IMG/VR virus record: IMGVR_UViG_3300028045_000008
Span: 1 to 64,000 of that record
DNA length: 64,000 bases
Direction: 5' to 3' (one strand)
DNA from: a virus
Numbering within the stretch: position 1 is the first letter of the stretch; every line of letters begins with the position of its first letter. Below the pieces are notes generated by a model that worked only from the letters and a program-made list of their open reading frames with translations, searched no databases and had not been told where the DNA came from. The translations under genes were made by a program, and so were the position numbers. Shown here one piece after another: positions 28,301 through 48,425 of this stretch.

Positions 28301-29734
28301 GTAAACGTTGAAATAAACGGCGGAAAGATCCAGCCATCTGCCTACTCTGTTACGATGAATAACTCCGAAACATTTACTAGTGCTTCAGTTATCTCTCTGA
28401 CTAACATCAATTCACATCCAGATTTTAACTTCCCACCTTCTGCTCTCAACGCCCAGTTCGAAGTGACGTTTGCAACCACAGAGAATACAGATCATTATGC
28501 CTCCGAGACTCTCTTTGGTACTGACTTTGCGGCGGGATTCCCAGAAAAGGGCTCTGCGATCTCTGTGGGCAATGGCCCATCTTATGCCACTGGAATGAAA
28601 GTATACACTAGCGACGGAACAGACACGACGACAACAACTGGGTCTCTGATCGACGTTACAATTTCGGCATCTTCCCACGCTGACACGCCGTTTACCTTTC
28701 AGGGCGGATCCGCGAATCATTGTATATATTTCGGCTCGACAAGGGTTGACGTAAACTCAGACCCACTCAAATATTATGGGATCAATGTTGATACATCCAT
28801 TGGTTCATTGACTGGTGCCTATGTATACGAGGTATGGGATGGTACCGAATGGGCCGATGTAGACTACCAATGTACCTCTGTAACGGAAGGATATAGATAT
28901 GCCAATAATCCTTTCATGAGAACAGACAATGATGAATTCATTAGGTTCGGCATCGAGCACCCAGACACCGTCTGGGCAACTTCTTCTATCGATGGCAACA
29001 ATGCATACTGGTCTCGCTGTAGAATCACTACCTCTGCCAGTTTGCCACAGTTCAGGAAGTGGTGGCTGACTCCAACACATTTATCTATAAGCGATAAAGG
29101 GGTTAGACAATCTCATGGTGAATCAATCTGGGAGGCAACGCTTGTCGGCGCCGGAAATATTTTTGGAGAGTCCGGTGGTGTCGTAACTGCCAACAATAAC
29201 GTCGGCTCTGGCGCCGCCCCAACCGGATGGACCCACCGGATGCCCAACTCGCTGCTGAATCAAGATGGAGATGCTATTTATACCCAATTTGCACTTCCTG
29301 CCGGAATTGATACATCGCTGCCGCTCAAGTTTAAAATTATTTACTCCCTAGATGATAGTGGCGCTTCTGTCCAGTTCCCATCTGGAACTCTGTCCGCCCT
29401 CCCACTTCAAGTTACTGGCATAGATGTCGCTGACCCAGACGGCGGAAAGATCCCAATACCAAGAATATTCGACAATACTGAGACTCTGACATCGAAAGTC
29501 GCGCCCATGGCCCTCACAGAGGGATTACAACCCGAAGGCGCCACTCTTGGCGATGATTTGAGCAATAGATTATTTTCTATTACTTATAAATATTTGTCGA
29601 TTGAAGAATACTATGAAGATGATATTATTGCAGTTCGGTTCGAACTAGAAGATGACGGGGATCCAGCCTACGATGTAGCTATATGGGCGGTTATCGTCGT
29701 GGGGCATAAATTCACAGAAGGGAAGCGACACTAA
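25361..29734 (+). CDS. Large tail fibre/spike-like protein (1457 aa), modular repeats plus probable beta-helix
   Basis: Three QFN..GAF..D.TW modules, three GD.TAS.N.S...F.GDGS.LT modules, [10 protein letters not shown]...PYLTI..AI...GD.IYV.PG.Y beta-helix cap. Confidence 0.75.
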
Positions 29735-33057: not shown

Positions 33058-34764
33058 ATGTCTATTTTAAATAAATTAACTGAAGGTATCGTTCGACGCG
33101 ATCTTTCTAAAGAAGGTGCCGCTCTTCTCTCCAAGTGGGAAAAGACTGGTCTTCTTGAAGGGATTTCAAATGAGCGTGCCAAGCACGGAATGGCTTCGTT
33201 GCTTGAAAACCAAGCCAAAGAGCTTCTTCGTGAAGCATCCACAATGGCTGGCGCCGGCGGCGGTGACGTCGAAGGCTTCGCTTCTGTGGCTTTCCCAATT
33301 GTCCGCCGAGTATTCGGTGGATTGATCGCAAACGACCTCGTTTCGGTTCAACCTATGAGCCTCCCATCGGGACTCATTTTCTTCCTTGACTTCACTTATC
33401 ATAATAATCGCCTCGACACAGCGAGGAATACTTCGGTATACGGTGGTGGACAAGTTGCTTCGCAAATCACTGGCGGCGTTTCGCTCGCTGGAAACGAAGC
33501 AGAGCAGAGCTTTTACGCCCTGAACAACGGATACACAAGTCCGACTGGTACCGTAGGTGGCCTTTCTATTACAGCAGTTCTTTCTGGTGTTGTCGGTGAT
33601 CCAACTGCAGGTGACGATGTCGATCGCATTTGTCGTTTTGATCCCGATTTGGTAGGCGCCGCAGTAGCTATCGCACCCGTTACCTTGTCAGACCTGACGG
33701 ACGGCCAGTTAAACATCAAAGATTATGTAACAATCACTCTTAATCTTGATGGTACCATGAATCCTGACCAAGTACGTCGACTAACGCGAGATGTCAACGC
33801 AAATGATGTCGCTGCTGGCCTTACCGCCGGCGATCTTGTCCTTGTTTGTTCGACCGGACTGGGCGCAGGAGAAATTGCAAACTCTGTAACTTCCATAGAG
33901 TCCGCAAATTCCGCCTCTTTCGTAATCGATGACGCCTTCCAGGCAGCCGGTGCTATTGGTTCAGTTGAAGGTATCGACATTTGGGGCCTTGAGAACGAAG
34001 AGCGCATCCCAGAAATCGACATCAAGGTCGATTCCGTGGCTGTCACTGCGAAGACCAAGAAGCTCAAAGCTAAGTGGACGCCTGAACTGGCACAAGATCT
34101 GAATGCTTATCACAATCTCGATGCAGAGGTTGAGTTGACCAGTATTCTGTCTGAGCACATCGCTCTTGAAATCGACCAAGAAATCTTGGAAGACCTCATC
34201 AAGGGTGCTACTGCTGAAACCCTCCACTGGTCCAGGTTTCCTGGAAAATTCGTGAATCGCCAAACCGGCGCCGCCTTGGATTCCATAACTAACGGTTTCC
34301 CAGACTTCACCGGCAACGTTAGCGAATGGTACGAGACCCTCGTTGAAACTATTAACGACGTCTCCGCACAGATCCACAGAAAGACTCTTCGTGGTGGCGC
34401 TAACTTCATCGTTGTTTCACCTGAAGTTGCAAACCTCCTCGAATTCACTGCTGGATTCCGCGGCTCTGTCACTCACGATGATGATCGTGGGCAAGTTGGA
34501 GCAGTTAGAGTTGGCTCTTTGAGCAAGAAGTTTGACGTGTATGTCGATCCTTACTTCCCGAGAAACGTTGTTCTCGCTGGTCGCAAGGGTTCTTCGTTCC
34601 TCGAAAGTGGATACGTTTACGCTCCTTATGTGCCTCTCCAAATGACTCCTACCATCTTTGGTACCGAGGATTTCGTGCCGCGCAAAGGCGTCATGACTCG
34701 TTACGCTAAGAAGATGGTTCGTCCTGATATGTATGGACTTGTCATTGTTCAAGATCTCGCATAA
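33058..34764 (+). CDS. Major capsid protein (T4 gp23-like)
   Basis: VQPM..PSGLIF, KLKAKWTPELAQDL.AYH.LDAE.EL..IL..EI..EI, YAPYVPL, GVMTRY. Confidence 0.95.
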   Translation: MSILNKLTEGIVRRDLSKEGAALLSKWEKTGLLEGISNERAKHGMASLLENQAKELLREASTMAGAGGGDVEGFASVAFPIVRRVFGGLIANDLVSVQPMSLPSGLIFFLDFTYHNNRLDTARNTSVYGGGQVASQITGGVSLAGNEAEQSFYALNNGYTSPTGTVGGLSITAVLSGVVGDPTAGDDVDRICRFDPDLVGAAVAIAPVTLSDLTDGQLNIKDYVTITLNLDGTMNPDQVRRLTRDVNANDVAAGLTAGDLVLVCSTGLGAGEIANSVTSIESANSASFVIDDAFQAAGAIGSVEGIDIWGLENEERIPEIDIKVDSVAVTAKTKKLKAKWTPELAQDLNAYHNLDAEVELTSILSEHIALEIDQEILEDLIKGATAETLHWSRFPGKFVNRQTGAALDSITNGFPDFTGNVSEWYETLVETINDVSAQIHRKTLRGGANFIVVSPEVANLLEFTAGFRGSVTHDDDRGQVGAVRVGSLSKKFDVYVDPYFPRNVVLAGRKGSSFLESGYVYAPYVPLQMTPTIFGTEDFVPRKGVMTRYAKKMVRPDMYGLVIVQDLA

Positions 34765-34796: not shown

Positions 34797-34828
34797 GCCC
34801 TCCCACTTTTTGTGGGGGGGTTTTGTTT
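34797..34828 (+). terminator. Rho-independent terminator after MCP
   Basis: ccctcccac/gtggggggg hairpin followed by ttttgttt. Confidence 0.75.
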
Positions 34829-34863
34829 ATGTGGAAACTACTTAGTCTAGGAGGCCCCCGAAC

Positions 34864-36132
34864 ATGGCATTACCAACTTTAACACCGGCAAGTCAGATGA
34901 GCAAGGCTATCTTACCACCGACTGGCAATGTGGATGATGTCTCTGTCGCAGTGCCTTACGGCATGTATAATAGCTCCCCCGGTTTTCTATCTGGCGCCGC
35001 AACCCAGGTGGCTTATACCTATAAGAAGCTGGGAGGAGATGTTCTCGATATCGAGCTTAAATCTGCTAATGTCTATGCGAATTACGAAGACGCGGTTCTT
35101 GAGTATAGTTACTTGGTCAATCTTCACCAAACAAAAAACATCCTTTCTGATGTCCTTGGTCAGGCAACTGGAACATTTGATCACAATGGCGAATCTCTAA
35201 CTGGGCCCGAAAATGTAAATTTAAAGTATCCACGCGTTATGTTCGAGTATGCACGCCGCGTCGGCGATGGAATATCTTTTGAAGCAAATGTTGGTGGAAC
35301 TATCCCTATTTACTCCGCTTCTTTTAAACTGGAGCAGGATAGGCAAGACTATGACTTGCAAGCCATAATATCATCTTCCGCCGCGACCGGAGTGGGAGCA
35401 ACCGGAGATCCGGTACCGTATGCCGGCATTGTGGGGGATAAAAGAGTTATCGTAAAGAAGGTTTACTATAAGACGCCTCACGCCATGTGGAGATTCTTTG
35501 GGTATTTCGGAGGACTAAACGTGGTTGGCAATATGAACTACTATGGGCAGTTTACTGATGATTCCTCATTTGAACTGATCCCGACTTGGCAAAACAAGCT
35601 CCAAGCTATGGCTTTCGAGGATAATCTGTGGACAAGGTTATCTCACTATTCTTATGAACTGAGAGATAATAAGCTAAGAATATACCCCGTACCTCAGTTG
35701 CTGAGTACTTATTTATATATGTGGGTTGAATTTTCCGTCATTCCAAATAGTTGGGATGAGCCCAGCAACTACAAATCTGGGACTGATGGAATAAACAACT
35801 TAAATACTATCCCTTTTGATAATCTGCCGTATGAGAATATTAACGCCATTGGAAAGCAGTGGATTCGAAGATTCGCACTCGCTTTGTCCAAGGAAACTCT
35901 TGGTCAGATTAGGGGAAAGTTTCAGACTATTCCCATTCCAGGGGAATCTGTAACTCTTAATGCCTCTGATTTACTATCTCAGGCAAAAGATGAGCAGGAT
36001 AAGCTGAGAACAGAATTGAAAGAGATTATGGACCAGTTAACTTATGTAGAGGTGGCCAAGAGTGATGCAGATAAGGTTGAGTCCGTTGGGAAGATATTTA
36101 AAACTATTCCAAAACTTATTTATCAAGGATAA
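34864..36132 (+). CDS. Neck/head-tail adaptor (T4 gp13-like)
   Basis: KLGGDVLDIEL N-terminal and WIRRFALAL.KE.LG..RGKF...PG..VTLN C-terminal motifs. Confidence 0.75.
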   Translation: MALPTLTPASQMSKAILPPTGNVDDVSVAVPYGMYNSSPGFLSGAATQVAYTYKKLGGDVLDIELKSANVYANYEDAVLEYSYLVNLHQTKNILSDVLGQATGTFDHNGESLTGPENVNLKYPRVMFEYARRVGDGISFEANVGGTIPIYSASFKLEQDRQDYDLQAIISSSAATGVGATGDPVPYAGIVGDKRVIVKKVYYKTPHAMWRFFGYFGGLNVVGNMNYYGQFTDDSSFELIPTWQNKLQAMAFEDNLWTRLSHYSYELRDNKLRIYPVPQLLSTYLYMWVEFSVIPNSWDEPSNYKSGTDGINNLNTIPFDNLPYENINAIGKQWIRRFALALSKETLGQIRGKFQTIPIPGESVTLNASDLLSQAKDEQDKLRTELKEIMDQLTYVEVAKSDADKVESVGKIFKTIPKLIYQG

Positions 36133-36135
36133 ACT

Positions 36136-37011
36136 ATGAGCAGCGAAAAAGAAAAGTTCCAAGGTTTTCGTCCCTATTTCAAAGAAGAAATACTAGATGA
36201 CAAGCCAGTTCCGCTGAAGGACATCTCGCTGATGCCATCAACTGTAGAGACCATAGATTTGGCTCTTTACGACTGGGTGAACGAAGAAATGGATCTATAC
36301 TGCACAACTAACGAGGGATGGAAAAAAGTGCCAATAATCTGGTCAATGCCAGAACGAGCATATCAGACAAAAAACGATAAAGACCTTAGAAATTCTAATA
36401 ACATCTTCACTTTTCCAGTAATATCAATTGAAAGGACTTCGCTTATAAAAGATCCTGCGATGAAGGGTGTCGCATGGGCCCACCTACCGCAATACAACGA
36501 TCCTAGAGGGGGCGCCATCGAAGTTTCTAGGAGAATCCAGCAAGATAAGACATCCAACTTCGCAAACGCTACGTCACAGAGAAGATTCAAGCAGCAGAAT
36601 TTCCCACTCAATAACAAGAAGGTGGTTTACGAAACTATCACTATGCCAATCCCGACATATGTTGTAGCGACTTATTCTATGGTTATCAGTACTGAATATC
36701 AGCAGCAGATGAACGAGATATTTACTCCATTTCTTACAACTACAGGCCAAATCAATAATTTTTTCATTCACCGTGATGGTCACAAATTTGAAGGGTTCAT
36801 TCAGAATGATCCCGCACTAGATAACACTTTATCAAATCTGGCTGAAGAAGAGAGGAAGTTCAAGACCACTATCGATTTGAAGATACTGGGATACCTGCTG
36901 AGCGCTGGAAAGAATGACGAGCGCCCTAAAGTCACTATTAGGGAGAATGCTGTCGAAGTTAAGATGCCCAGAGAGAGGGTTATATTCGGTGATAAGAAGG
37001 AATATAAATAA
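36136..37011 (+). CDS. Tail terminator/completion protein (gp15-like)
   Basis: KVPIIW..PER, FPVISIER; neck-cluster position. Confidence 0.55.
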   Translation: MSSEKEKFQGFRPYFKEEILDDKPVPLKDISLMPSTVETIDLALYDWVNEEMDLYCTTNEGWKKVPIIWSMPERAYQTKNDKDLRNSNNIFTFPVISIERTSLIKDPAMKGVAWAHLPQYNDPRGGAIEVSRRIQQDKTSNFANATSQRRFKQQNFPLNNKKVVYETITMPIPTYVVATYSMVISTEYQQQMNEIFTPFLTTTGQINNFFIHRDGHKFEGFIQNDPALDNTLSNLAEEERKFKTTIDLKILGYLLSAGKNDERPKVTIRENAVEVKMPRERVIFGDKKEYK

Positions 37012-37835
37012 TGGCTGATGACAATAAATGGAGCAAGCCATCAAATCCGCCACCACCGCTTTTTCTTGGAGAGAACGAGAGAAACTTAGTTAAGCAGGTT
37101 AATGATGAGTTAATCGAGCGTGTCATTGGCCAAGCCATTACTTATCTCCCTGTTTCTATGGAAAGAACAAATTTCCACCCACTATATGGTGAAGCAATTG
37201 AAAAGAGTTTCATGCCTCCAGTTAGGGTGTATGCCCTTGTAGAATTTGAGGGAATCACCACCACCACGGATCACTACGGCCTAGATAAGGAGTATCCCAT
37301 AACGGTAAGATTTCACGAGAGGAGACTCCACGAAGATCAGGATCTCTATGTCAGAGAAGGGGATTATGTTCAGTACGGAACATCATTTTTTGAAATTGTG
37401 TCTCTCAAGGAAGATCGTCAGCTTTTCGGACAGGTAGACCATCTTTTCCAGATTGAGGCCAAATGTATAAAAACGAGAAAAGGCCTGATAGACCTGAATG
37501 TTCTTCCATCTGACACCATCGCCGCTATCCTTGAGTCGTCCGAAACATCATCTGAGTCCGAGGAATCTGGTGGATCTGGTGGATCTTCGATCGCCAGGAT
37601 ATGTTATGTCAACGACGCCACGGTGGATATAGCACCGGATACGTCTCTCAACGGCTTTCTGGGAGTGGGAGAGCTATCTACAGTCACCGCCGCAGTATAT
37701 GAGAACGGCATGAGACAAAAGCTAACAGGACTCCCGGCTACCGGAGACTATTATATCGATGATGGCGAATTATATAGCATCGTGGAGATTGAGGAAGGAC
37801 AACGTGTCTTAGTGGAGGTTTTAACTTTAGTATGA
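37011..37835 (+). CDS. Neck/head-closure protein (gp14-like) with extra C-terminal domain
   Basis: G..ITYLP....N..LYGE and REGDYV..G..FFEI motifs; Ser/Gly linker then extra domain. Confidence 0.6.
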   Translation: MADDNKWSKPSNPPPPLFLGENERNLVKQVNDELIERVIGQAITYLPVSMERTNFHPLYGEAIEKSFMPPVRVYALVEFEGITTTTDHYGLDKEYPITVRFHERRLHEDQDLYVREGDYVQYGTSFFEIVSLKEDRQLFGQVDHLFQIEAKCIKTRKGLIDLNVLPSDTIAAILESSETSSESEESGGSGGSSIARICYVNDATVDIAPDTSLNGFLGVGELSTVTAAVYENGMRQKLTGLPATGDYYIDDGELYSIVEIEEGQRVLVEVLTLV

Positions 37836-39034
37836 GTACATTTCGCGAGCATAAATCAGTTGCTGACCGCTCTGCTGCAGACCGTAAGCGCCATAAAAGA
37901 AAGATCGAGAAAGCCCTTAAAGAAGGCATCAAGGACGTGGTTGCAGACGAGTCGATTATCGGACAGGACGGAAAAAAGAAAGTAAAAATCCCCGTTAAAG
38001 GAATTAAAGAGTATCAATTCATTTACGGAGAAAACAAGAGTAATAAAAAAGCAGCTTCAGCGGGAGATAAACAGGTAAAAAAAGGGCAAATACTAAGAAA
38101 AAAGCCACAGAAAGGAAAGGGATCTGGAAAGAAGGCGAGTAATGAGCCCGGCGAGGAATACTATGAAGTAGAGATAACGTTGGACGAACTCGCAGAGTAT
38201 TTATTCGAAAACCTAAATTTGCCAGACCTACAAAAAAAGAAATTTAGATTTATCAAGGACAAAAAGCTTAGAAGAAAAGGGTACCGAAAGAAGGGGATCC
38301 GAACGAGACTCTCTAAGAAAGAAACGATAAAAAGAAAAATAAGAAGAAAGAAGCGTGCCATCGCAAGCGGAACTTTTGATCCGAATGGGGAAGAGAGATT
38401 CCCATTTCACCAGGATGACCTAAAATATAAACATATGAAGGAAAAGGACGTTGAAAGCAGTTCTGCTGTAGTCTTTTTCTTGATGGATGTATCAGGCTCT
38501 ATGGATAAACAGAAAAAGTACCTGGCTCGAAGCTTCTACTTCCTGTTATATCAATTTTTGCGGTACAGATATGAGAATATAGAAGTGGTCTTCATATCCC
38601 ACTCAACTGATGCCAAAGAAGTCAGCGAATCAGAGTTTTTTGAAAGAGCAACCTCCGGAGGCACCCTGATGTCTTCTGCTCTTGAGATGGAGAAGGAAAT
38701 TATAGAAAAGAGATATCACCCATCGTCGTGGAACATTTACACCTTTTATTGTGGTGATGGCGAAAACTGGTCGATAGATAACAAGAAATCACTAGACCTC
38801 ATAAAGAGTCTGTCTGAAATTAATCAGATGTTCTGCTATGCTGAGATCAATCCATTTCTGGCTCACGGATCAGATAACGATACATATTTCGCATTCAATA
38901 GTTCTCTGGATCCAAGCAGTATGTGGACTCGTCTGGCCCCACTTGAGAGTGAGGGGATAAAGAGAGTGAAGATCGCCGAGTCTAAGGACATTTGGCCTTC
39001 TTTTAATAAAATATTTGGAGGAGACCTCCCATGA
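37832..39034 (+). CDS. yeaH: YeaH/YhbH family (DUF444) vWA-domain protein
   Basis: D..RH..KI..ALK, PF...DLKY, AVVFFLMDVSGSM MIDAS, SGGT..SSAL, WNIY.F..GDGEN. Confidence 0.92.
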   Translation: MSTFREHKSVADRSAADRKRHKRKIEKALKEGIKDVVADESIIGQDGKKKVKIPVKGIKEYQFIYGENKSNKKAASAGDKQVKKGQILRKKPQKGKGSGKKASNEPGEEYYEVEITLDELAEYLFENLNLPDLQKKKFRFIKDKKLRRKGYRKKGIRTRLSKKETIKRKIRRKKRAIASGTFDPNGEERFPFHQDDLKYKHMKEKDVESSSAVVFFLMDVSGSMDKQKKYLARSFYFLLYQFLRYRYENIEVVFISHSTDAKEVSESEFFERATSGGTLMSSALEMEKEIIEKRYHPSSWNIYTFYCGDGENWSIDNKKSLDLIKSLSEINQMFCYAEINPFLAHGSDNDTYFAFNSSLDPSSMWTRLAPLESEGIKRVKIAESKDIWPSFNKIFGGDLP

Positions 39035-40335
39035 AAGACTGGACCATAAAAGAGTTACAAAGATATGACAAGGAAATCTGTAAAATTGCAGAAGAAAAAT
39101 ATGCCCTCGATTGGTTTCCTATAGAATATGAGATTCTAGATTATCATGAGATGCTGGGCGCCATGGCCTACAGTGGCTTGCCAACTCACTATCGTCACTG
39201 GTCATTCGGAAAAAACTTTGAAAGAACTTCTACTCGATACAATCTTGGAATGGAGGGCTTACCCTATGAGATGATCATAAACAGTAATCCAAGCATAGCC
39301 TATCTGATGCTTGAGAATCCAATGAGCATCCATCTGCTGACTATGGCTCACTGTGTTGGTCATTCTGATTTTTTTAAAAATAATCGCATGTTCAAAGAGA
39401 CAGATCCATCAAATATTATATCTAGGTTTAAATCTGCCTCAAAAAGAGTAAGAGATTATATAGAGGATCCCAGCATTGGAATCGATAGAGTGGAGGCGAT
39501 CTTAGACGCTTGCCACTCCATACAGTACCAAGTACCAAGAATTCCAGGCATTGTGAGAAGCCCAGCTAGCTCGAAAGAGGATAAAAACAACGAAGACAAT
39601 AAAAATTTGATTGGCGATTTGTTCCGTTTCGAAAATATTGAAGACTACAACTTGCTTGGTTTTATAAAAAACAATTCTCGCAATCTTGAAGACTGGCAAA
39701 GAGATCTGGTGGGGATGGTAGAGAGAAGGTCCTCGTACTTCATACCACAGGCTAGGACAAAGATTATGAATGAGGGCTGGGCTGTGATGATTCATGAAAA
39801 AATAATGAATGATCTAAACTTGCCGGACAAATATCAAATAGCCTTTTTGAAATCACACAACCAGGTCGTCCGTCCAATGTTGGGTAGGATCAATCCTTAT
39901 CATCTTGGCTACAACATGTTTAAGAAGATAGAGAGGGATCACGGATTCGAAGAGTGCAAGCTGGTTCGCGAGATTCATGACGATGAAGCGTTCATAAGAA
40001 AGTACTTGGATGAGGAAATGTGTAAAGAATTGAATCTCTTTAGCTACTCTTACAATAAGCCAGGTAGAAAATACGCAATTAATGACATTTCTGACAAAGA
40101 AGGGTGGAAAAGCGTGAGGGACGCCCTAATTAGTAATGTGGGACTTAACAGCGTCCCAGTTGTGCGCGTTGATAAATTTAATAAAAAAATGAATATTTTA
40201 TATCTAAAGCATGAACATGATGGTCGCGACTTGGAGATTAGCTACGCAAACAAAGTGTACGATCACATTAAATTTTTGTGGGATGATGATATAATATTTA
40301 CTTCCATTCTGGAAGGTGAACTATGGGAATTTTAA
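39031..40335 (+). CDS. spoVR: SpoVR/YcgB family protein
   Basis: G.PTHY.HWSFGK, YEMIINSNPSIAYL, AH..GHSDFFKNN, TKIMNEGWA, NPYHLG, HEHDGRDL. Confidence 0.93.
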   Translation: MKDWTIKELQRYDKEICKIAEEKYALDWFPIEYEILDYHEMLGAMAYSGLPTHYRHWSFGKNFERTSTRYNLGMEGLPYEMIINSNPSIAYLMLENPMSIHLLTMAHCVGHSDFFKNNRMFKETDPSNIISRFKSASKRVRDYIEDPSIGIDRVEAILDACHSIQYQVPRIPGIVRSPASSKEDKNNEDNKNLIGDLFRFENIEDYNLLGFIKNNSRNLEDWQRDLVGMVERRSSYFIPQARTKIMNEGWAVMIHEKIMNDLNLPDKYQIAFLKSHNQVVRPMLGRINPYHLGYNMFKKIERDHGFEECKLVREIHDDEAFIRKYLDEEMCKELNLFSYSYNKPGRKYAINDISDKEGWKSVRDALISNVGLNSVPVVRVDKFNKKMNILYLKHEHDGRDLEISYANKVYDHIKFLWDDDIIFTSILEGELWEF

Positions 40336-40336
40336 A

Positions 40337-42271
40337 ATGACAAAAACAAATGAATTTTTAGAGATTATTGAGAAGAAGAATAAAGAAAAGAACAAAAGCA
40401 AGTTTTCTGGGACCTTTTCGGAATATTTGAAGCTCGTTGAGGAGGATGGAACCATTTCCATACTAGCTCACAAAAGGCTCTATGAGACCATTAAAGCGGA
40501 AGGCGTGACTAGGATGTCTCCAGAAGACGGCCGATGCGCAAACCTATTCAATGGTGAAAAAATAAGAACTTATGATTATTTTCAATCAAAATTCTTTGGC
40601 ATGGAAAGATCTTTGGCAAAAATTATGAGATATCTACATTCTGCAGCCATGAGGGGAGAGGAGAGCAAGCAAGTTCTTCTTCTGCTAGGCCCAGTCGGCG
40701 CCGGAAAGTCAGCACTCATCGAACACGTTAAACGCGCCCTAGAGTCCGCAGGCTCCTTTTATCAGATCGCAGGCTGTCCCATCCAGGAAGAGCCGCTACA
40801 CTTGATACCGAGAAGTCTCCGAGCAGAATTTAAAGATCTTTATGGTGTCAACGTCGAGGGGGATTTGTGTCCGGTTTGTCGACACAACCTGTTGAACGAA
40901 TATGGCGGAGATTATCTAAGTATGCCCGTAATCGAATCCACCTTCTCTGTGAGGGGTCGCCGCGGCGTAGGCGTTGTTCCTCCCATGGACGCGAACACCC
41001 AAGATACCAGTATCCTGATTGGATCAGAGGATATCTCTAAATTGGATTTGTACCCAGAGGATGATCCCAGGGCCCTGAGTCTAAACGGCGCATTCAATGT
41101 CGGAAATCGTGGTATTGTAGAATTTGTGGAGGTGTTTAAAAATGAAATAGAGTTCCTTCACACTATGATTACGGCAACTCAAGAAAAATCCGTCCCATCA
41201 CCAGGTAAAGGCGCCATGATTTATTTTGACGGTGTAATCCTGGCCCATTGTAACGAAGCTGAGTGGAATAAGTTCAAGTCAGAAAATACAAATGAGGCAA
41301 TTCTTGATAGAATTGTCAGAGTTAACGTTCCTTATTGTCTTGAAATCGGTGAAGAGCAGAAGATATATCAAAAAATGCTTGATGAATCTGATTTCGATGC
41401 ACATATCGCCCCACACACCCTAGAGATAGCGGCAATGTTCGCTGTTTTGTCGCGTCTAAAGATATCTAACAAGGTTGACTCTATTACAAAGATGAAGATT
41501 TATAATGGAGAGGAGATCGTTGAGAAGGGATATATCAAAAAAATAGATATTAACGATCTAAGGGAAGAAGCGAGAGACGAAGGTATGACTGGACTTTCAA
41601 CTAGATTTATCATGAAGTCTATTGATGCCGCTTTAGCCGATTCAGATAAAAACATGGTCACCCCGATATCAATTCGTGATGCGCTCGTGAAACAGGTCAA
41701 GGAGCAGGTAGTTGTCGATGACTTGAGAGAGAAATATCTATCGTTTCTCCAAAAAGAGCTTCACGATGAGTACTTGAGAATACTGGAAAAAGAAATAACA
41801 AAAGCATTTGTTTCAGCATATTCGGAACAGGCAGAATCCCTTTTCGACAATTATCTTGATCATGCGGAGGCATATGTTAACGCAACTAAGGTAAAAGACA
41901 ACGTCACTGGAGAAGAGATGTCTGCAGATGAAGACTTCCTTTCCTCAATCGAAGAACAAATAGGAATCGTTGGATCAGCCAAAGACAACTTCAGGGCAGA
42001 TATCACTGCTTATATGTTCGCAAAACTGAGAAGAAAGGAAAAAATTGACTGGAGAGCTTATGGTCCACTCAAGGAAGCAATCGAAAGTAAGCTGCTGGAT
42101 TCAGTGAGAGATATCTCCAGAATTGTAACCAAGTCGAAATCCAGAGACAATAAACAGAAAAAGAAATATAATGAAATGGTTAAAGTGTTAATCGAGGATC
42201 ACGGATATAACGAAGATTCCGCAAACGAGATTATTAAATATGCCTCAAATAACCTTTGGCGCGATAGCTAA
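40337..42271 (+). CDS. prkA: PrkA/YeaG family AAA+ ATPase / Ser kinase
   Basis: FFGME, Walker A GPVGAGKS, CP.QEEPL, LCPVC, NRGIVEFVE.FK, NEAEW, EAILDRI, EGMTG.STR; ATG 40337 preferred over 40316. Confidence 0.93.
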   Translation: MTKTNEFLEIIEKKNKEKNKSKFSGTFSEYLKLVEEDGTISILAHKRLYETIKAEGVTRMSPEDGRCANLFNGEKIRTYDYFQSKFFGMERSLAKIMRYLHSAAMRGEESKQVLLLLGPVGAGKSALIEHVKRALESAGSFYQIAGCPIQEEPLHLIPRSLRAEFKDLYGVNVEGDLCPVCRHNLLNEYGGDYLSMPVIESTFSVRGRRGVGVVPPMDANTQDTSILIGSEDISKLDLYPEDDPRALSLNGAFNVGNRGIVEFVEVFKNEIEFLHTMITATQEKSVPSPGKGAMIYFDGVILAHCNEAEWNKFKSENTNEAILDRIVRVNVPYCLEIGEEQKIYQKMLDESDFDAHIAPHTLEIAAMFAVLSRLKISNKVDSITKMKIYNGEEIVEKGYIKKIDINDLREEARDEGMTGLSTRFIMKSIDAALADSDKNMVTPISIRDALVKQVKEQVVVDDLREKYLSFLQKELHDEYLRILEKEITKAFVSAYSEQAESLFDNYLDHAEAYVNATKVKDNVTGEEMSADEDFLSSIEEQIGIVGSAKDNFRADITAYMFAKLRRKEKIDWRAYGPLKEAIESKLLDSVRDISRIVTKSKSRDNKQKKKYNEMVKVLIEDHGYNEDSANEIIKYASNNLWRDS

Positions 42272-42298
42272 AATATATTAAAAAATAACATTTAAATT

Positions 42299-42333
42299 AA
42301 GCCCCTTATTTCATTTAGAAAAGGGGCTTCTTT
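42299..42333 (+). terminator. Putative Rho-independent terminator after prkA
   Basis: aagcccctt/aaggggctt inverted repeat then ctttt-rich tract. Confidence 0.65.
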
Positions 42334-42468
42334 ATGTCTTTTCGTGTAGTGACCTCCTATCTACGGGCGAATGAGTGTGCCTGGCATACTTGTTCTTGGT
42401 TTTTTTAAACTTTTGGTTTATCAAAACCAACATATTTCAATTTCAAACATTGAGGAGGAAATAACAAT

Positions 42469-44964
42469 ATGGCTTTTAATTTAAACAGTTTCCAGCAATG
42501 GAAAACTTATATGTCCTCATGGGGTAGTCCTGTGAATTTAGATCACATTTACGACTATGCTGGATATATCTATGGCGGAAGCAACTTAGATGTTGACGAA
42601 GCTTCAATCCCATCTTCGTGGCTTGGTACGGCTGGAGACAGACGCTACCCTGCCGCTGACACTCTTGAAATGGGAATCACTGGTACTGCCTATGACGGCA
42701 GCGCCTATGATAAAGTAATCAAGTATACTTGGGCTGGTTTGACCGTTAATGGTGGTGGAAACAATGACATATTTATCACGCCGTCCCACATCAAAGATGC
42801 AGGCGGCGCGTATGTCGCGACATCGGCAGATGAGCAGGCAATGTATCGTATTCGTATCTCGAACGGACCAACTTATGCAATGCTAACTATAGAACCAAAT
42901 TTCCCATCGACCGGACCACAGCCTGGGCCGTTCTCTCCGGGAACCGCGGTTTCTATCAATACTATGGTATTTGATGCTGATAATTATGACGCTCTTGCCA
43001 ATAGCGGTCAAGCTCATAATTATGTCAGTGATTATACAGGCGGCCCACAAACCATTTCAGTTGTCAAAATAACTGAAAGTGGCGAAGATGCAACTCTTGC
43101 TGGCCAGGATGTCGGCGACACTCTTTCTGTATACGGCAGCGCAGGCTGGCTCGCTACTCCTAGTGGTCAAACTCGGAAATATCAGTGGAATCTTGATGGA
43201 GTCGCAGTAGCCGGCGTAACCGGAACCTCGTACACTACAGATACTGCTGGAACCGTCACTGTGACTGTTAGCGATGACGAATTCGTCACCTCTTCGACTT
43301 CAGACGGCGTCTCAGTAAATGCTGGCGCTCAAGGAGCGTTCGTCTTAGATGAAGACTTTGAGTCAACCGATGTAGGATCTCTTCCTAGCGGCTTTACCAC
43401 CTCTGGCGATGCCGGATGGGAAGTTGTGGCTAACGGAGGAGCCTATGAAGGAACCAAGCATCTAATATCTCAGGATATCGACGATTCCCAGGCTTCCGTT
43501 TTGGTATATTCTCTGACTATCACTGAGGCTGCGGTCTTGAACTTCTGGTGGAATGTTTCCTCAGAAGCTAACTATGATAAACTGCATTTCTATGTAGATG
43601 GTGCCGAAGAAGGATCCGGCATCTCAGGAGCACCTGGCTGGGCTAAAGTGACATACACTTTTAACGCGGCAGGAACTTATGAACTAAAGTGGTCCTACAC
43701 AAAAGATAGTTCGGCAGATGGCGGGGATGACCTCGGTATGCTGGACAAAATCACAGTACAAAACATTAATGAAGACACAACAGGAGGAAACATTATGTCT
43801 AAAACTAGAATTAACATTCGTCAGGTCGACCTGGAATTAGCAGGCGGCGCTGAAGAATATGAAACAATGGCAGAGGCAGTTGCCGCTGAGGGCGCAGCCC
43901 TTTACGGTAAACTGGTCCCTGCAAAATTTGACCCAAAATACATGGGTGTTAGCTTGAGCGTGGTAGATTTTAAAGCCGCAGCATCTGGCTATACGATTGT
44001 AAACAGGGATGCCCTTGACGACGTTCGAACAACGCTCGAAGGCGCAGATACAACTCTTCAGTCGAACATCGATGCTGAAGCTGCACGCGCATTGGCAGCA
44101 GAAGCTGCCCTTCAGGGTAACATCGATGCTGAAGCAGCAGCCCGCACAACAGCAGATACAACTCTTCAGTCGAACATCGATGCTGAAGCTGCACGCGCAT
44201 TGGCAGCAGAAGCTGCCCTTCAGGGTAACATCGATACTGTTGACGCTCGCGTCACCGCGATCCTCTCGGGTTCATCCGACGGCCTCGACACATTTATCGA
44301 AGTTGTCGCAGCCTATGAGGCTGCTGATGGTAGTCTTGAGACTTCCATCACCAACCTGTCGACCGTAGCAGCAGACGATCGCGCAGCAATCCGCTCCGAG
44401 TTTGAAGCAGCAGATACAGCCCTCCAGGGTAACATCGACGCACTAGGGGCGTATGCTGGTGTTGAAATTCTCTCCGCTTCTGACGACCGTGCATTAATCC
44501 GCACTGAATTCGCAGCAGCAGATGTAGTTCTTCAGAATCAAATCACCTCGAACGATACTGATATCGCTACTAACGCAGCAGATATTTCTTCTGAAGCTGC
44601 ACGCGCATTGGCAGCAGAAGCTGCCCTTTCCGCCAGTGTTACCACTGAGCAGACTAGAGCATTGACAGCAGAAGCTGCCCTCACCACTGATGTCAGTGAG
44701 CTAAACGCTGATATACTTGCCCTATACGGAAGACACTTCAGAGCTAGCTCTGTCGTAGGTTCCGATGGCACTTATGAGGTTGCCCTAGGCGACCTCGCAG
44801 ACGAAGGTTCATTGCAGGTATTTGTCAACGGTATACTTATGGTAACCACTGTTGATTATACTGTGTCCTCCGCCGCCGGCGTTATGACCGTCAGTGTCTT
44901 GGGCTGTGAAACAGGTGATGATGTCACTGTCATGGGCCAAAAGCAGGTCTCTCTCACATCGTAA
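42469..44964 (+). CDS. Virion fibre/decoration protein: N-terminal adhesin-like beta domains plus C-terminal coiled-coil stalk
   Basis: Strong GAGGAGG RBS; Ig-like and W.VSSE..YD.L.F.VDG (MAM-like) domains; 18-aa periodic Ala-rich coiled coil. Confidence 0.7.
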   Translation: MAFNLNSFQQWKTYMSSWGSPVNLDHIYDYAGYIYGGSNLDVDEASIPSSWLGTAGDRRYPAADTLEMGITGTAYDGSAYDKVIKYTWAGLTVNGGGNNDIFITPSHIKDAGGAYVATSADEQAMYRIRISNGPTYAMLTIEPNFPSTGPQPGPFSPGTAVSINTMVFDADNYDALANSGQAHNYVSDYTGGPQTISVVKITESGEDATLAGQDVGDTLSVYGSAGWLATPSGQTRKYQWNLDGVAVAGVTGTSYTTDTAGTVTVTVSDDEFVTSSTSDGVSVNAGAQGAFVLDEDFESTDVGSLPSGFTTSGDAGWEVVANGGAYEGTKHLISQDIDDSQASVLVYSLTITEAAVLNFWWNVSSEANYDKLHFYVDGAEEGSGISGAPGWAKVTYTFNAAGTYELKWSYTKDSSADGGDDLGMLDKITVQNINEDTTGGNIMSKTRINIRQVDLELAGGAEEYETMAEAVAAEGAALYGKLVPAKFDPKYMGVSLSVVDFKAAASGYTIVNRDALDDVRTTLEGADTTLQSNIDAEAARALAAEAALQGNIDAEAAARTTADTTLQSNIDAEAARALAAEAALQGNIDTVDARVTAILSGSSDGLDTFIEVVAAYEAADGSLETSITNLSTVAADDRAAIRSEFEAADTALQGNIDALGAYAGVEILSASDDRALIRTEFAAADVVLQNQITSNDTDIATNAADISSEAARALAAEAALSASVTTEQTRALTAEAALTTDVSELNADILALYGRHFRASSVVGSDGTYEVALGDLADEGSLQVFVNGILMVTTVDYTVSSAAGVMTVSVLGCETGDDVTVMGQKQVSLTS
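44044..44235 (+). repeat. 84-bp exact direct repeat, 108-bp period, in coiled-coil coding region
   Basis: 44044-44127 identical to 44152-44235; partial third copy near 44591-44628. Confidence 0.9.
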
Positions 44965-45011
44965 TAGCTTAAACTATTAAAGCGATATTCCAATCTTATT
45001 GAAATATTGCC

Positions 45012-45047
45012 GGGCTCTCCCATTAATTTGGGAGGGCCCTTTTTTTT
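45012..45047 (+). terminator. Rho-independent terminator
   Basis: gggctctccca/tgggagggccc hairpin plus T8. Confidence 0.85.
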
Positions 45048-45089
45048 AAACTACTTAAGAACGAACAATGAAAAGGGGGATCGAAAGAT

Positions 45090-45467
45090 ATGTTCGAAAA
45101 GATAAAGAGTTTTTTTACCACTAACAGCAACGCGAAGTCAGAAGTCGAAGAAGCCCTACAAGAAGAAATCCATGAGGCCCCACCAGAACCACCAAACACT
45201 TTGGAGATCCCATGGGAAGATGTAACACCGCTAAAGAACATTGACAATGCCAGGAAAAAGCTTCATGATAAAATTAAAGATATTCTATACAATGCAAAGA
45301 TGACAGAGGCCAAGGCTTTCCAGACTTTAGATCTTTATCGAGAGATTGAAAAAGAAAAGCTGAAAGAACTACATGAGAAATACAACATCCCATCAGATGG
45401 AAGTTACGACCTGGAATTGCCGGCGATAACCGGAAAGCAAGGATATTTCAAAAAAAGGAATAAGTAG
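45090..45467 (+). CDS. Hypothetical protein
   Basis: ORF with CTACTTA motif (45051) and RBS. Confidence 0.55.
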   Translation: MFEKIKSFFTTNSNAKSEVEEALQEEIHEAPPEPPNTLEIPWEDVTPLKNIDNARKKLHDKIKDILYNAKMTEAKAFQTLDLYREIEKEKLKELHEKYNIPSDGSYDLELPAITGKQGYFKKRNK

Positions 45468-45557
45468 TCCTATTCTGGAATATTTAATATGACTTTGAAA
45501 AAAGAATAAACTATTTATAGTATAACAGGATTTTATTCCCCGTAGGAGAAATTTTAA

Positions 45558-48425
45558 ATGTCAGTCAAAAAGTTCAAATTTGTATCGCCCGGCGTATTTT
45601 TAAGCGAAGTTGACAACTCGCAATTACCGGCAGCAGAACGAGAAATCGGCCCACTTGTCGTTGGTCGTACCCAATTTGGCCCAGCCATGAGACCAGTCAC
45701 CGTTCAATCGTTTTCTGAATATGTCGAGACTTTTGGTAATCCGGTACCAGGCGGCGCCGGAGGAGATGTGTGGAGAGATGGGAACCAGCAGGGCCCAACA
45801 TATGCTGCATATGCAGCCCAAGCATATCTGAAGTCTGATGTCGGACCAGTGACAATGATTCGCCTTTTGGGAAGTCAAAATCCAGAGTTTCTTGGAAGTC
45901 CGGTGGCAGCAAACCGCGCATCCGCTGGGTGGGCAACGGAAGGGACAATTTCTCCCGGTAACGACGGTGGGGCCTACGCCCTGGTTGTCTGCAATAGCTC
46001 CTCATCTCCAGCAGGAGTGGCTCAAGATGCTGTCGTCGCGGCAATCTGGTACATGGACAGTGGTTCTATCTCTCTTAGCGGAACACTCGCCGGCCCAGCC
46101 GGCGCCACTGGACAGACAGGGTCATACGCCTTGTTCAAAAACAATGGCTCCTCCTTCAACCCAGAATACACAGCTATAATAAAAGACTCTCTTGGGAATG
46201 TGGTTCACAAAACAGCATTTAATGCTGATCCCGATTCCGCTAAGTATATCAGAAATGTCTTCAATACGAATCCTCAGTTAGTGAACTCTGACGTAGTGGA
46301 CACTACGGTTTTTAATCGCGGTGAAAATCTGTATTGGCTCGGAGAAACTTTCGAGAATACCATGGCAAAGCTCGTTTTGGGCGGAGACATAACAAACCCA
46401 GACGCAATGATTGTAGCCCTCGGAAACGCTGCTGGAACCGTCAGTAGATCTGATATGAAGCAGAATTATCAAGAAGCAGCCACCGGCTGGTTCATCTCGC
46501 AAGATCTAACTTCAGATGCCGCATCTTACGTCGCTTCCAACCAGAACAATCTGTTTAGAATTGTCGCTAGAGACGCTGGAGAGAACGCCCAGAACACTTT
46601 AAAAATATCAGTACAGAATATCAAACCATCTACCAGCTTACTGGATCAATATGGTACTTTCGATGTTGTGGTGAGAAGAGCAAACGACACAGACAACGTT
46701 GTTAAATACGTCGAGAGATATACAAATCTATCTTTGAATCCTTCATCTGAAAACTACATCGGAGTTAAAATTGGTGATAAATATACCATTTATGACGATG
46801 ACCAAAAGAGACTTAGAGAATATGGACAGTACGACAATCAATCGAAATACATTCGAGTAGAAATTAGAGATGATGTTGCCACTGGCCTGACTGATCCAAA
46901 AGCTCTACCATTCGGAGTCAGAGGACCAAAGGTCCCAGCAACAGTAACTATCGAGTCCGGTTCCGTGTCTATCACCACTCCAGGCGATGCAGATTCTATA
47001 TTGGTCACCGGCTCAGTGGCTGCTGACACGAAGGCTTCCCCTACATCGATGTATGACGCAGGCGGATACGCACAACACACATGCTCCATTCAGTGGCCAG
47101 CAGTGACTCTCCGCCTCTCAGCTTCTGACGGCGGCCTTGGAAACCCAACTGACGCATTTTTCGGCGCGCAGTCATCAACCCAGCTTTCCGTCAATGACAA
47201 TCTTAACTTTGATCCAGGCTGGGGAGATCTTCTGAGATCATTTCCTACCGCCCTTGAGGGAACTCTTGTAGATTCGTGGGTATTCTCCCTGGATGAAGTT
47301 GTCACTTCTGGTTCAGCGACAGCCTTCTGGAAAGACGGCTCAAGAGCATCGCTTGATTCGGCCACTGCACAGGGGGATTATACTTCTATTTTGACAGATG
47401 GTTATGACAGCTTTACGGCCCCCCTTTACGATGGGTTTGACGGCCTCAATATCAAGGAGATCGAACCATTTAGAAACAGTGCCATGGGAGCCACTGATAA
47501 CGAGTACTCCAACTACGCATTTAACGCAATTCAACAAGCTCTCAACAGTATTTCCGACCCAGAAGTTGTAGAGTATAATCTACTCGCAGTACCTGGGCTG
47601 ACTAACACAAAATTGACGCAACATATGATAAACATTTGCGAAGACAGAGCAGACGCTCTCGCAGTCGTCGACCTCGAAGATGTGTATGCTCCTTTTACAG
47701 AGAATACTAAGGCATTTCAGGAAAGAGTTAGTACCCCGAATGACGCAGTGAACGCACTTAGACTGAGGCAAATTGATTCTTCTTACGCATGTACCTATTT
47801 CCCATGGGTCCAGGTCCGAGATACTATCGCCTCTAGATTACTCTGGGTCCCGCCTTCCGTAATAGGACTTGGCGTCATGGCGAACTCCGAGGCCAAATCA
47901 GAGGTATGGTTTGCACCTGCAGGATTTAATCGTGGAGGTCTTACAGAGGGCTCTGCCGGATTACCAGTCGCAGGCCTGACATATAAGCTGACCTCGAAAG
48001 ACAGGGATCTTCTTTATGATGCGAGTGTTAATCCAATCGCCTCATTCCCATCGGAAGGCATTGTCGTTTTCGGACAAAAAACTATGCAGGTTAAGAGATC
48101 AGCACTCGATCGAATTAACGTGAGAAGGTTGATGATCTTCATTAAGAAACAGGTATCCAGAATATCTTCTGGCCTCTTGTTTGATCAGAACGTTAGCGTG
48201 ACTTGGGAGAGGTTCCTAAATCAGGTTAATCCGCTGCTGTCAAGTATCCAGTCGAGATTGGGATTGACCGAATTTAAGGTTGTTCTCGATGAGACGACCA
48301 CTACTCCGGACTTGGTAGATCAGAACATCATGTATGCTAAGATATTCTTGAAGCCTGCAAGAGCTATTGAGTTTATCGCAGTTGATTTTGTGATTACGAG
48401 ATCTGGCGCATCTTTTGATGACTAA
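45558..48425 (+). CDS. Tail sheath protein (gp18-like), 955 aa with insertions
   Basis: SPGVFLSEVD, F...FG, WFAPAGFNRG, FGQKT, RINVRRL, P..AIEFI. Confidence 0.95.
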   Translation: MSVKKFKFVSPGVFLSEVDNSQLPAAEREIGPLVVGRTQFGPAMRPVTVQSFSEYVETFGNPVPGGAGGDVWRDGNQQGPTYAAYAAQAYLKSDVGPVTMIRLLGSQNPEFLGSPVAANRASAGWATEGTISPGNDGGAYALVVCNSSSSPAGVAQDAVVAAIWYMDSGSISLSGTLAGPAGATGQTGSYALFKNNGSSFNPEYTAIIKDSLGNVVHKTAFNADPDSAKYIRNVFNTNPQLVNSDVVDTTVFNRGENLYWLGETFENTMAKLVLGGDITNPDAMIVALGNAAGTVSRSDMKQNYQEAATGWFISQDLTSDAASYVASNQNNLFRIVARDAGENAQNTLKISVQNIKPSTSLLDQYGTFDVVVRRANDTDNVVKYVERYTNLSLNPSSENYIGVKIGDKYTIYDDDQKRLREYGQYDNQSKYIRVEIRDDVATGLTDPKALPFGVRGPKVPATVTIESGSVSITTPGDADSILVTGSVAADTKASPTSMYDAGGYAQHTCSIQWPAVTLRLSASDGGLGNPTDAFFGAQSSTQLSVNDNLNFDPGWGDLLRSFPTALEGTLVDSWVFSLDEVVTSGSATAFWKDGSRASLDSATAQGDYTSILTDGYDSFTAPLYDGFDGLNIKEIEPFRNSAMGATDNEYSNYAFNAIQQALNSISDPEVVEYNLLAVPGLTNTKLTQHMINICEDRADALAVVDLEDVYAPFTENTKAFQERVSTPNDAVNALRLRQIDSSYACTYFPWVQVRDTIASRLLWVPPSVIGLGVMANSEAKSEVWFAPAGFNRGGLTEGSAGLPVAGLTYKLTSKDRDLLYDASVNPIASFPSEGIVVFGQKTMQVKRSALDRINVRRLMIFIKKQVSRISSGLLFDQNVSVTWERFLNQVNPLLSSIQSRLGLTEFKVVLDETTTTPDLVDQNIMYAKIFLKPARAIEFIAVDFVITRSGASFDD

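Follow-up and report, generated by a model that had tools for sequence, protein, structure and literature searches.

A complete YeaH-SpoVR-PrkA cassette in permuted order in a T4-like marine phage, and its possible part in host protein turnover

Background

PrkA (YeaG, also named SpdA), YeaH (YhbH) and SpoVR (YcgB) make up a cellular module that is encoded in E. coli by yeaGH plus ycgB and in B. subtilis by prkA-yhbH and spoVR, and that mostly forms one operon. The present work concerns a complete set of these three genes in a viral genome. They lie within the window, by which we mean the whole 64,000-nucleotide stretch analysed, that is, positions 1-64,000 of the 114,371-bp IMG/VR virus record IMGVR_UViG_3300028045_000008 (estimated completeness 63%).

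In E. coli, YeaG is needed for the largely non-specific bulk degradation of cytoplasmic proteins induced by starvation; deletion of yeaG abolishes this proteolysis, which supplies amino acids and ATP, and YeaH and YcgB were outside the scope of that study (PMC13684143, 2026). The genes yeaG, yeaH and ycgB are mutually best cofitness partners in six bacteria, and Price et al. regard the three proteins as a conserved signalling pathway with phenotypes that differ between species (bioRxiv 10.1101/072470). PrkA of B. subtilis uses its Walker A lysine (K108), a residue needed for function, to bind and hydrolyse ATP, and a slow degradation of casein has been reported (PMC9512850).

Phages with the trio are already on record, and the present case is a well-documented example from a large clade of uncultured marine phages. 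The record of Thermus phage phiYS40 annotates 'SpoVR' and 'serine kinase', phage copies having been annotated since 2006, and the paper on the Ralstonia jumbo phage RsoM2USA lists SpoVR and a serine kinase, filed under replication and signalling (PMC8504454). The trio is not mentioned in the paper on the Lalka phages, and no paper was found in the literature that combines PrkA, 'auxiliary metabolic' and virus. An initial annotation of the window had stated that no characterised phage version was known. This stands as far as function is concerned; as for the genes themselves, phiYS40, RsoM2USA (PMC8504454) and three PHROG families that match the trio (phrog_19072, phrog_35217 and phrog_22605) show that copies were on record.

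Results

Three intact genes with conserved functional residues

The trio consists of three adjacent, full-length genes on the same strand:

37832..39034, + strand: YeaH/YhbH (DUF444, PF04285), 400 amino acids (aa); Pfam E 5.1e-111, 372.1 bits, above the gathering score
39031..40335, + strand: SpoVR/YcgB (PF04293), 434 aa; Pfam E 1.1e-117, 393.6 bits, above the gathering score
40337..42271, + strand: PrkA/YeaG (SpdA), 644 aa; AAA+ ATPase domain and PrkA C-terminal domain

The initial annotation had described three intact neighbouring open reading frames (ORFs) with the diagnostic motifs of these families, and all of these motifs were found where it had placed them. YeaH, which also matches phrog_19072 (E 1.3e-96), has a strongly basic N-terminal half and a vWA domain with a complete metal ion-dependent adhesion site (MIDAS), made up of D219-x-S221-x-S223 (motif text FFLMDVSGSMD), T278 and D309; these five residues are invariant in 41 phage and cellular sequences. 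In SpoVR, the motifs HWSFGK, GHSDFFKNN and TKIMNEGWA are all present, residues H56, H107, H111, E248, H255 and H276 are invariant in 40 sequences, and there is an additional weak match to SpoVR_C. The two Pfam domains of PrkA, AAA_PrkA (PF08298; E 4e-142, 473.9 bits) and the PrkA C-domain (PF06798; E 1.2e-78, 264.8 bits; cut-offs 25), span residues 33-642. PrkA contains the Walker A motif GPVGAGKS (K124) and NRGIVEFVE, and residues G118, P119, G121, K124 and S125 are invariant in nine diverse sequences. A sequence search of the PDB matched PrkA with the solved structure 9xip (E 6e-97) and returned nothing for SpoVR or YeaH. PrkA could also begin at the GTG at 40316, which would give a protein of 651 aa (40316-42271); the ATG at 40337 is the more likely start, because close homologues are nearly all 644-647 aa long and this ATG stands one base past the SpoVR stop.

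A gene order that is uniform in cells and permuted in the phage clade

The phage trio thus resembles the cellular module in families, lengths and domains; it retains the Walker A, MIDAS and SpoVR invariant residues, and its three genes stand together. It differs from it in being carried by a lytic-type T4-like phage, in gene order, in having frames that overlap or abut, in forming a clade of its own, and apparently in being placed under a late phage operon and not under control of RpoS, NtrC or a sporulation sigma factor. At least 597 PrkA relatives emerged when 185,579 species genomes were scanned by alignment, and the best 80 of them were examined. These are 54-62% identical to the PrkA of the window and come from Bacillota, Pseudomonadota, Binatia, Myxococcota, Bdellovibrionota and others. 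The order was PrkA-YeaH-SpoVR in 71 of the 71 complete loci, the other nine of the 80 being cut by contig ends, and the permutation to YeaH-SpoVR-PrkA noted at the outset is therefore upheld. The canonical order is nonetheless a habit of the module and not a requirement, as E. coli splits the module into yeaGH and ycgB.

A pattern scan of IMG/VR found 166 contigs encoding a PrkA relative, and the best 80 (62-84% identical) were used for locus comparison. YeaH, SpoVR and PrkA were contiguous and in the order of the window in all 80 loci, so that the co-occurrence and order which the initial annotation had suggested looking for in viral collections do exist. In 76 of the loci all genes are complete. 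The YeaH and SpoVR frames of 57 of these share 4 or 1 nt, and across the 76 a gap of 1 nt is the commonest between SpoVR and PrkA, while the identities of the three proteins to those of the window co-vary (rho 0.87-0.90). We conclude from the contiguous fixed order, the overlaps and the co-varying divergence that the trio behaves as one cassette. In one of the 76 cassettes (L063:7966-10067), SpoVR and PrkA are separated by about 0.7 kb of additional DNA, which is the sole large gap of this kind.

Relatives P0001-P0005 are 92-97% identical, and the nearest relative used for comparison (L200, 92%) is a 193-kb contig with an identical layout. A search among 5.8 billion proteins revealed many more relatives, all of them uncultured and many from Tara Oceans, and a megablast search of the cassette gave no match among GenBank phages, a collection from which near relatives may be absent.

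In the PrkA tree, the window, the IMG/VR sequences and two contigs from metagenome-assembled genomes (MAGs) form a single clade with a FastTree support of 100 and a branch of 0.25. With IQ-TREE, the same clade of marine phage PrkAs had a Shimodaira-Hasegawa-like approximate likelihood ratio (SH-aLRT) support of 100 and a branch of 0.32. The phage-specific clade that had been proposed as a check on the initial annotation is thus recovered by both methods. It is weakly placed as sister to a Bacillota group (support 86 and 76).

The permuted-order MAG contigs nest within the viral clade. One of them (G001:C25), from a 'Halobacteriovorax' bin, carries PhoH-PIN, a tubulin-like gene, a NUDIX gene, a phosphomannomutase and a trypsin-like peptidase, and its MAG also has a related terminase (51% identical), a gp23 capsid gene and sheath genes on another contig. 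Because of this phage-like gene content, and of the related terminase, capsid and sheath in the same bin, the contig is very probably mis-binned phage DNA. A related phage contig in this 'Halobacteriovorax' MAG (G001:C13:35548-41596) has two adjoining sheath-like ORFs of 1187 and 1056 aa. A Bdellovibrionota MAG holds two trios, one in canonical order with a PrkA 58% identical to that of the window (L111, on G002:C5), and one in permuted order that falls within the viral clade and is 64% identical (L108, on G002:C9). Terminase, capsid and sheath genes were looked for in this MAG and none was found; its permuted trio could reflect a phage-to-cell transfer or a mis-binned phage contig. The MAG bins that hold members of the clade span unrelated phyla, and they are probably binning artefacts.

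Strong purifying selection on all three genes

For close viral pairs, the median ratio of nonsynonymous to synonymous substitution rates (dN/dS, Nei-Gojobori) was 0.047 for YeaH, 0.048 for SpoVR and 0.030 for PrkA. In the comparison with the 193-kb relative, where synonymous sites of the trio are saturated, dN was 0.105, 0.078 and 0.048, respectively; the value for PrkA was the lowest among ten neighbouring genes, that of the capsid protein being 0.096. All three genes are under strong purifying selection, and the low ratios together with the low dN of PrkA exclude relaxed selection. The initial annotation was therefore right that the phage keeps the whole three-part set, and a one-off capture in decay is contradicted by the presence of constrained copies across related phages (dN/dS 0.03-0.05). 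PrkA is still 54-62% identical to its cellular counterparts, which suggests that its biochemistry is unchanged in the phage.

Trios in other phages

PrkA homologues of GenBank phages are about 30-34% identical to that of the window and fall into three groups. The Thermus phages phiYS40, TMA, phiLo, MN1 and Lalka8/27a/27b have all three genes, arranged as in the window and close to head and packaging genes; their PrkA, however, is only 31-34% identical to that of the window and forms a separate deep branch, and phiYS40 differs further in having an additional 617-aa ORF between SpoVR and PrkA. An approximately unbiased (AU) test rejected a single clade of all permuted-order sequences (delta log-likelihood 67.4, p 0.0057), a result to be read with the long branches in mind and with the fact that the group was named after the tree had been seen. 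Since the test rejects marine and Thermus phages as one clade, the permuted order seems to have arisen at least twice in phages, and its sharing by the two groups would be convergent. RsoM2USA and the huge uncultured phages LR745206, LR756511 and LR756504 also bear PrkA, YeaH and SpoVR, but unlike the window they have the canonical cellular order, with about 30-33% identity and on separate branches; these trios look like independent captures. The YeaG-YeaH pair of Enterobacter phage LAU1 (MN688132.1 1-3308) was considered as a phage trio and rejected: it stands at the very start of the record, beside tail fibre genes, and is most likely the host flank of a prophage.

The cassette at the boundary of the neck and tail modules

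Nearly all genes of the window are on the + strand, and those that define the virion, together with the surroundings of the trio, are as follows:

18364: large terminase (Pfam/PHROG)
19957: portal (Pfam/PHROG)
23615: prohead protease (Pfam/PHROG)
25361-29734: 1457-aa ORF between the prohead protease and capsid genes, no Pfam or PHROG match
33058-34764: gp23-type (gp23-family) capsid protein
34797..34821, + strand: strong terminator-like hairpin after the capsid gene; 10-pair stem with 7 G-C pairs and a T-rich tail
34838..34844, + strand: CTACTTA, a one-base variant of the CTATTTA box, 26 nt before the 34864 gene
34864..36132, + strand: 422-aa neck-region protein, first gene of the putative trio-bearing operon
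36136..37011, + strand: 291-aa conserved virion-module protein, no Pfam or PHROG match
37011..37835, + strand: 274-aa protein whose N-terminal 161 aa match a 164-aa neck-module gene of relatives
about 42300-42329 and 42369-42395, + strand: two hairpins past the PrkA stop, the second followed by a T run and also found in a terminator scan
42469..44964, + strand: 831-aa ORF in the variable interval between PrkA and sheath, no Pfam match
45558..48425, + strand: tail sheath (phrog_23, E 2.3e-64, and Pfam sheath domains), start of the tail module
48480: tube (Pfam/PHROG)
49090: baseplate hub (Pfam/PHROG)
50564: tape-measure-like ORF

With its gp23 capsid, portal, large terminase, prohead protease, contractile sheath and tube, the phage is a T4-like (gp23-type) myovirus. 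The 1457-aa ORF is kept in close relatives (68% identical in L200), and the neck-region protein has a weak PHROG match to head-tail adaptor Ad2 (E 3e-11) that covers only its C-terminal 90 aa. The G+C content of the cassette (0.40-0.41) does not differ notably from that of the window, and the 64-kb window has no tRNA genes. As first described, the trio stands between neck and tail genes, with capsid and neck genes upstream and the sheath downstream.

This placement was found only in the subclade of the window, namely in about 26 of the 80 loci of the PrkA scan and in L200-L204, L207, L208, L211 and L213. In other members of the clade, the flanks of the trio match non-structural genes, which in the record of the window are found at 87-107 kb. 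A scan of IMG/VR with the neck protein encoded at 34864 gave 342 relatives and added 79 loci to the comparison. In 55 of these 79, the neck protein, a 164-aa gene, a 296-aa gene and the sheath were present without the trio, including in relatives whose neck protein is 75-77% identical; in the trio-less relatives, the homologue of the 291-aa protein directly precedes the sheath gene, and the two small neck genes are swapped in the subclade of the window relative to them. Five longer related contigs, 25-78% complete, had no PrkA at all, although fragments cannot prove absence.

The 274-aa ORF has a C-terminal extension of about 110 aa (37494-37835) that runs into the YeaH start and is without counterpart in the 164-aa homologue. 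Within the subclade it evolves fast, being 30-52% identical as compared with 74-86% for the N-terminal part, and it was not found in the examined IMG/VR loci where the trio sits elsewhere. It looks like a possible scar or junction left by insertion of the cassette. On the other side, the interval between PrkA and the sheath (42272-45557 in the window, with the 831-aa and a 125-aa ORF) is hypervariable, with lengths between about 0.15 kb (L007) and about 9.5 kb (L025; see also L027 and L034), and the 831-aa ORF is outside the three-gene module. The restriction of this site to one subclade, the 55 trio-less loci, the non-structural flanks elsewhere, the five contigs without PrkA and the variable interval speak for an accessory cassette that came to rest where two modules meet at a plastic boundary, and against a part in virion assembly. 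It would have moved into the neck/tail junction from an accessory region.

Beyond the window, the non-structural genes at 87-107 kb of the record include a nucleotidyltransferase and the following:

record 87304-88872 (L085:305-1873): GroEL-type chaperonin (Cpn60_TCP1, E 1e-63), 522 aa
record 104339-107004 (L085:17340-19999): MoxR-like AAA_5 ATPase, then a DUF2201 protein
L085:7736-8542, 9834-10580 and 6535-6876: trypsin-like peptidase, eukaryote-type phosphomannomutase and small cupin of the accessory region

The DUF2201 protein has a putative metallopeptidase domain and a VWA-like domain, and forms with the MoxR-like ATPase a second AAA+/vWA pair of the phage. This pair is 6-9 kb away from the trio in L039, L044, L051 and L057. 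Related copies of the chaperonin are close to the trio in L069, L072 and L087, and the peptidase, phosphomannomutase and cupin families also adjoin the trio in the mis-binned contig G001:C25.

Signals for late expression

A CTATTTA box occurs 19 times in the window, compared to 10.9 expected, with 15 copies on the + strand, of which 11 are at most 60 nt upstream of ORF starts (examples are at 561, 15131, 25331, 30625, 31514, 32014, 45511, 48440, 50161 and 52830). In the form (aa)CTATTTA(ta), it sits on the + strand 12-58 nt before many virion gene starts, and the extended box is the reverse complement of the T4 late box. We regard it, and its variant CTACTTA at 34838, as a candidate late-promoter element. 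The T4 late promoter TATAAATA itself was tried and set aside: it was found 13 times, compared to 3.2 expected, but mostly on the minus strand, and CTATTTA on the plus strand fits better. The sole plus-strand copy of TATAAATA near the trio touches the start codon at 37011 and is too close to serve that gene.

The hairpin at 34797..34821 marks the upstream boundary of the putative trio operon. Downstream of it genes are closely packed: the stop of the 37011-37835 ORF overlaps the YeaH start (ATGA), and the YeaH end (39034) overlaps the SpoVR start (39031), with the PrkA ATG following at one base from the SpoVR stop. No CTATTTA box is present between 36136 and 42271, and the hairpins within 42300..42395 are the likely operon end. 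The upstream terminator, the box at 34838, the absence of an internal box, the overlapping or abutting genes and the 3' hairpins suggest that the trio would be transcribed late, as the distal half of an operon extending from 34864 to 42271.

A predicted SpoVR fold that resembles zincin metallopeptidases

The structure of SpoVR was predicted from an alignment of 40 sequences (mean predicted local distance difference test, pLDDT, 83.5; predicted template modelling score, pTM, 0.83). In an exhaustive VIA-align search, the top 50 or so matches were almost only zincin metallopeptidases (Z 11.6-6.4), among them M1 aminopeptidases, leukotriene A4 hydrolase, oligoendopeptidase F, M32 carboxypeptidases, thermolysin, lugdulysin and collagenases. 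The matches involve residues 1 to about 340, with 170-200 residues aligned at a root mean square deviation of about 4 A. H107 and H111, with i, i+4 spacing, are on helix 98-117 (H-[VC]-x-G-H), and the invariant N247-E248-G249-W-A251 is on helix 244-261, in what we take to be a likeness to the HExxH...NEGFA arrangement of gluzincins and M1 peptidases, with E248 as the candidate third metal ligand. The predicted fold of SpoVR thus appears zincin-like, with the canonical catalytic glutamate missing. A relationship to the phage's own DUF2201_N metallopeptidase-like protein was tried and rejected (hhalign probability 0.07), and among the matches listed in our literature search no paper linked SpoVR or YcgB with zincins.

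The combination of an AAA+ motor with a zincin-fold partner recalls the AAA+ zinc metalloproteases of the FtsH/YME1 type, and a comparison of PrkA with YME1 and other clade III AAA+ proteins has been drawn (PMC13001217). This is an analogy of working principle only, and the phage trio is not a member of that group: motor and zincin-like part are separate proteins, a vWA protein is added, there is no membrane anchor, SpoVR has H-[VC]-x-G-H in place of HExxH, and there is no sequence relationship.

Discussion

The explanation that we tentatively favour is that the cassette encodes a self-contained, ATP-driven machine for protein turnover or remodelling, expressed late, which recycles host cytoplasmic protein for virion synthesis. 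PrkA would be its ring-forming AAA+ motor, a role that is probably its own because PrkA hydrolyses ATP and the highly purified protein is without protease activity. YeaH would act as a vWA/MIDAS coupling or adaptor subunit, and SpoVR as a metal-dependent partner of zincin-like type, perhaps the one that hydrolyses the substrate. During a long late phase, the machine would degrade or remodel bulk host protein and so provide amino acids and energy for virions in nutrient-poor hosts. The same theme recurs elsewhere in the phage genome, in the GroEL-like chaperonin, the trypsin-like peptidase and the MoxR-like AAA/DUF2201 pair, which we count in favour of turnover or remodelling. The control of host dormancy or starvation proposed in the initial annotation can now be sharpened toward the bulk starvation-induced proteolysis that depends on YeaG (SpdA) (PMC13684143).

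Several points weigh against this explanation. Highly purified PrkA of B. anthracis, a clade III AAA+-like protein, had no protease activity, and the weak activity of the B. subtilis protein was perhaps due to a contaminant (PMC13001217). Starvation proteolysis in E. coli concerns only a few percent of protein per hour (PMC13684143), and at that pace a phage may run out of time if its latent period is not long. As for SpoVR, its Z of 11.6 is only middling for a helical protein, and such values can arise for helical proteins; a Foldseek search of the model against the PDB gave nothing with E below 0.001, and the HExxH glutamate is absent, position 108 being V (21) or C (19) in 40 of 40 sequences. 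Late timing is read from sequence signals only, and the argument from nutrient limitation, which derives from the Tara Oceans sources, is circumstantial. Finally, no paper was found that studies the function of the phage copies.

It is possible, although rather unlikely in our view, that the trio acts in host-state signalling, where a kinase-like activity or an AAA+ remodelling of few targets would drive the host into a stationary or dormant programme, or keep it from entering one, without bulk proteolysis. The conserved-pathway view of Price et al. (bioRxiv 10.1101/072470), the pleiotropic regulatory effects in Bacillus prkA mutants (PMC9512850, PMC13001217) and the lack of protease activity in pure PrkA (PMC13001217) are all in keeping with this. 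The kinase activity, however, was not reproduced, and the C-terminal P-loop is degenerate (PMC9512850, PMC13001217). A host-specific target would also be ill-suited to a mobile cassette whose PrkA is 54-62% identical to that of many phyla, and late expression would leave little time for reprogramming.

A bolder form of the turnover explanation, which we consider unlikely as it stands, makes the trio a three-piece ATP-dependent metalloprotease that liquidates the host proteome late in infection. PrkA would form the unfoldase ring and YeaH the vWA/MIDAS coupler, and SpoVR would be an unusual hydrolase of zincin-like type, with the motif HxxGH...NEGWA and a general base other than the canonical one. 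If this were true, the trio would be the viral counterpart both of starvation-induced proteolysis and of the phage-driven degradation of host DNA, and a requirement of expression or assembly peculiar to phages would lie behind the gene order on which the marine and Thermus groups converged.

The location of the trio had led the initial annotation to propose an assembly chaperone. In this reading an AAA+/vWA pair would build or load the head-neck-tail junction, or the proteins would serve virion maturation or be packaged and ejected. There is a precedent in the MoxR-type AAA+/vWA pairs, which are known to act as assembly chaperones. The trio of the window is in the putative neck operon, with the capsid on one side and the sheath on the other; the trio of Lalka27b is between portal/minor head genes and the large terminase, and that of phiYS40 is near the terminase. 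Yet most members of the clade have the trio among non-structural genes, the same capsid-neck-sheath genes occur in 55 relatives without a trio at this site, and PrkA is missing from five related contigs, of which one is 78% complete. The mis-binned relative G001 has its structural genes on another contig than its trio, and the trio is far closer to its cellular homologues than virion proteins are to each other among these phages. A role in assembly is disfavoured by these observations, and we regard it as quite improbable.

We find it just as improbable that the machine is directed at particular host proteins, such as defence factors, regulators or ribosome hibernation factors, in a targeted counter-defence or takeover and not in bulk turnover. 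Defined clients are common among AAA+ machines that work with an adaptor, a part that YeaH could play, and a patchy accessory distribution is typical of host-interaction genes. No defence or anti-defence gene is linked to the trio, however, and there is no sign of diversifying selection (dN/dS 0.03-0.05), the adaptor-like YeaH being equally constrained. As for a mis-assembled join of host and phage DNA, or a recent and decaying one-off capture, which the binning of some clade members in bacterial MAGs might suggest, it can be dismissed as far as sequence evidence reaches: the same junctions, with the same layout and flanking phage genes, are seen in more than 20 independent contigs from different samples, G+C is unremarkable, purifying selection is strong, the clade is monophyletic and stands apart from every cellular sequence, and the MAG contig G001:C25 is phage-like, in a MAG with related terminase, capsid and sheath.

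Conclusions

Beyond the initial annotation, the present analysis adds a permuted order that is fixed throughout a phage clade, against a uniform cellular order, and that is apparently convergent with that of Thermus phages; evidence that the placement in the virion module is secondary; the strength of constraint on the three genes; and a zincin-like predicted fold of SpoVR without the canonical glutamate. The biochemical mechanism of PrkA/YeaG-YeaH-SpoVR has been open for about 30 years. A clade of ocean phages keeps all three genes together and intact, with a dN for PrkA below that of its own capsid protein, and this clade-wide retention leads us to conclude that the three proteins form a portable, self-sufficient unit, independent of host-specific regulation. 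The phage copies are compact, co-evolved sets for reconstitution and structural work, and the idea can be put to the test in the cultured Thermus and Ralstonia phages. Should the zincin-like fold of SpoVR be confirmed, it would point to a candidate for the hydrolytic subunit. Large phages may drive the bulk recycling of host protein, which would be a new class of auxiliary function and relevant to marine nutrient flow.

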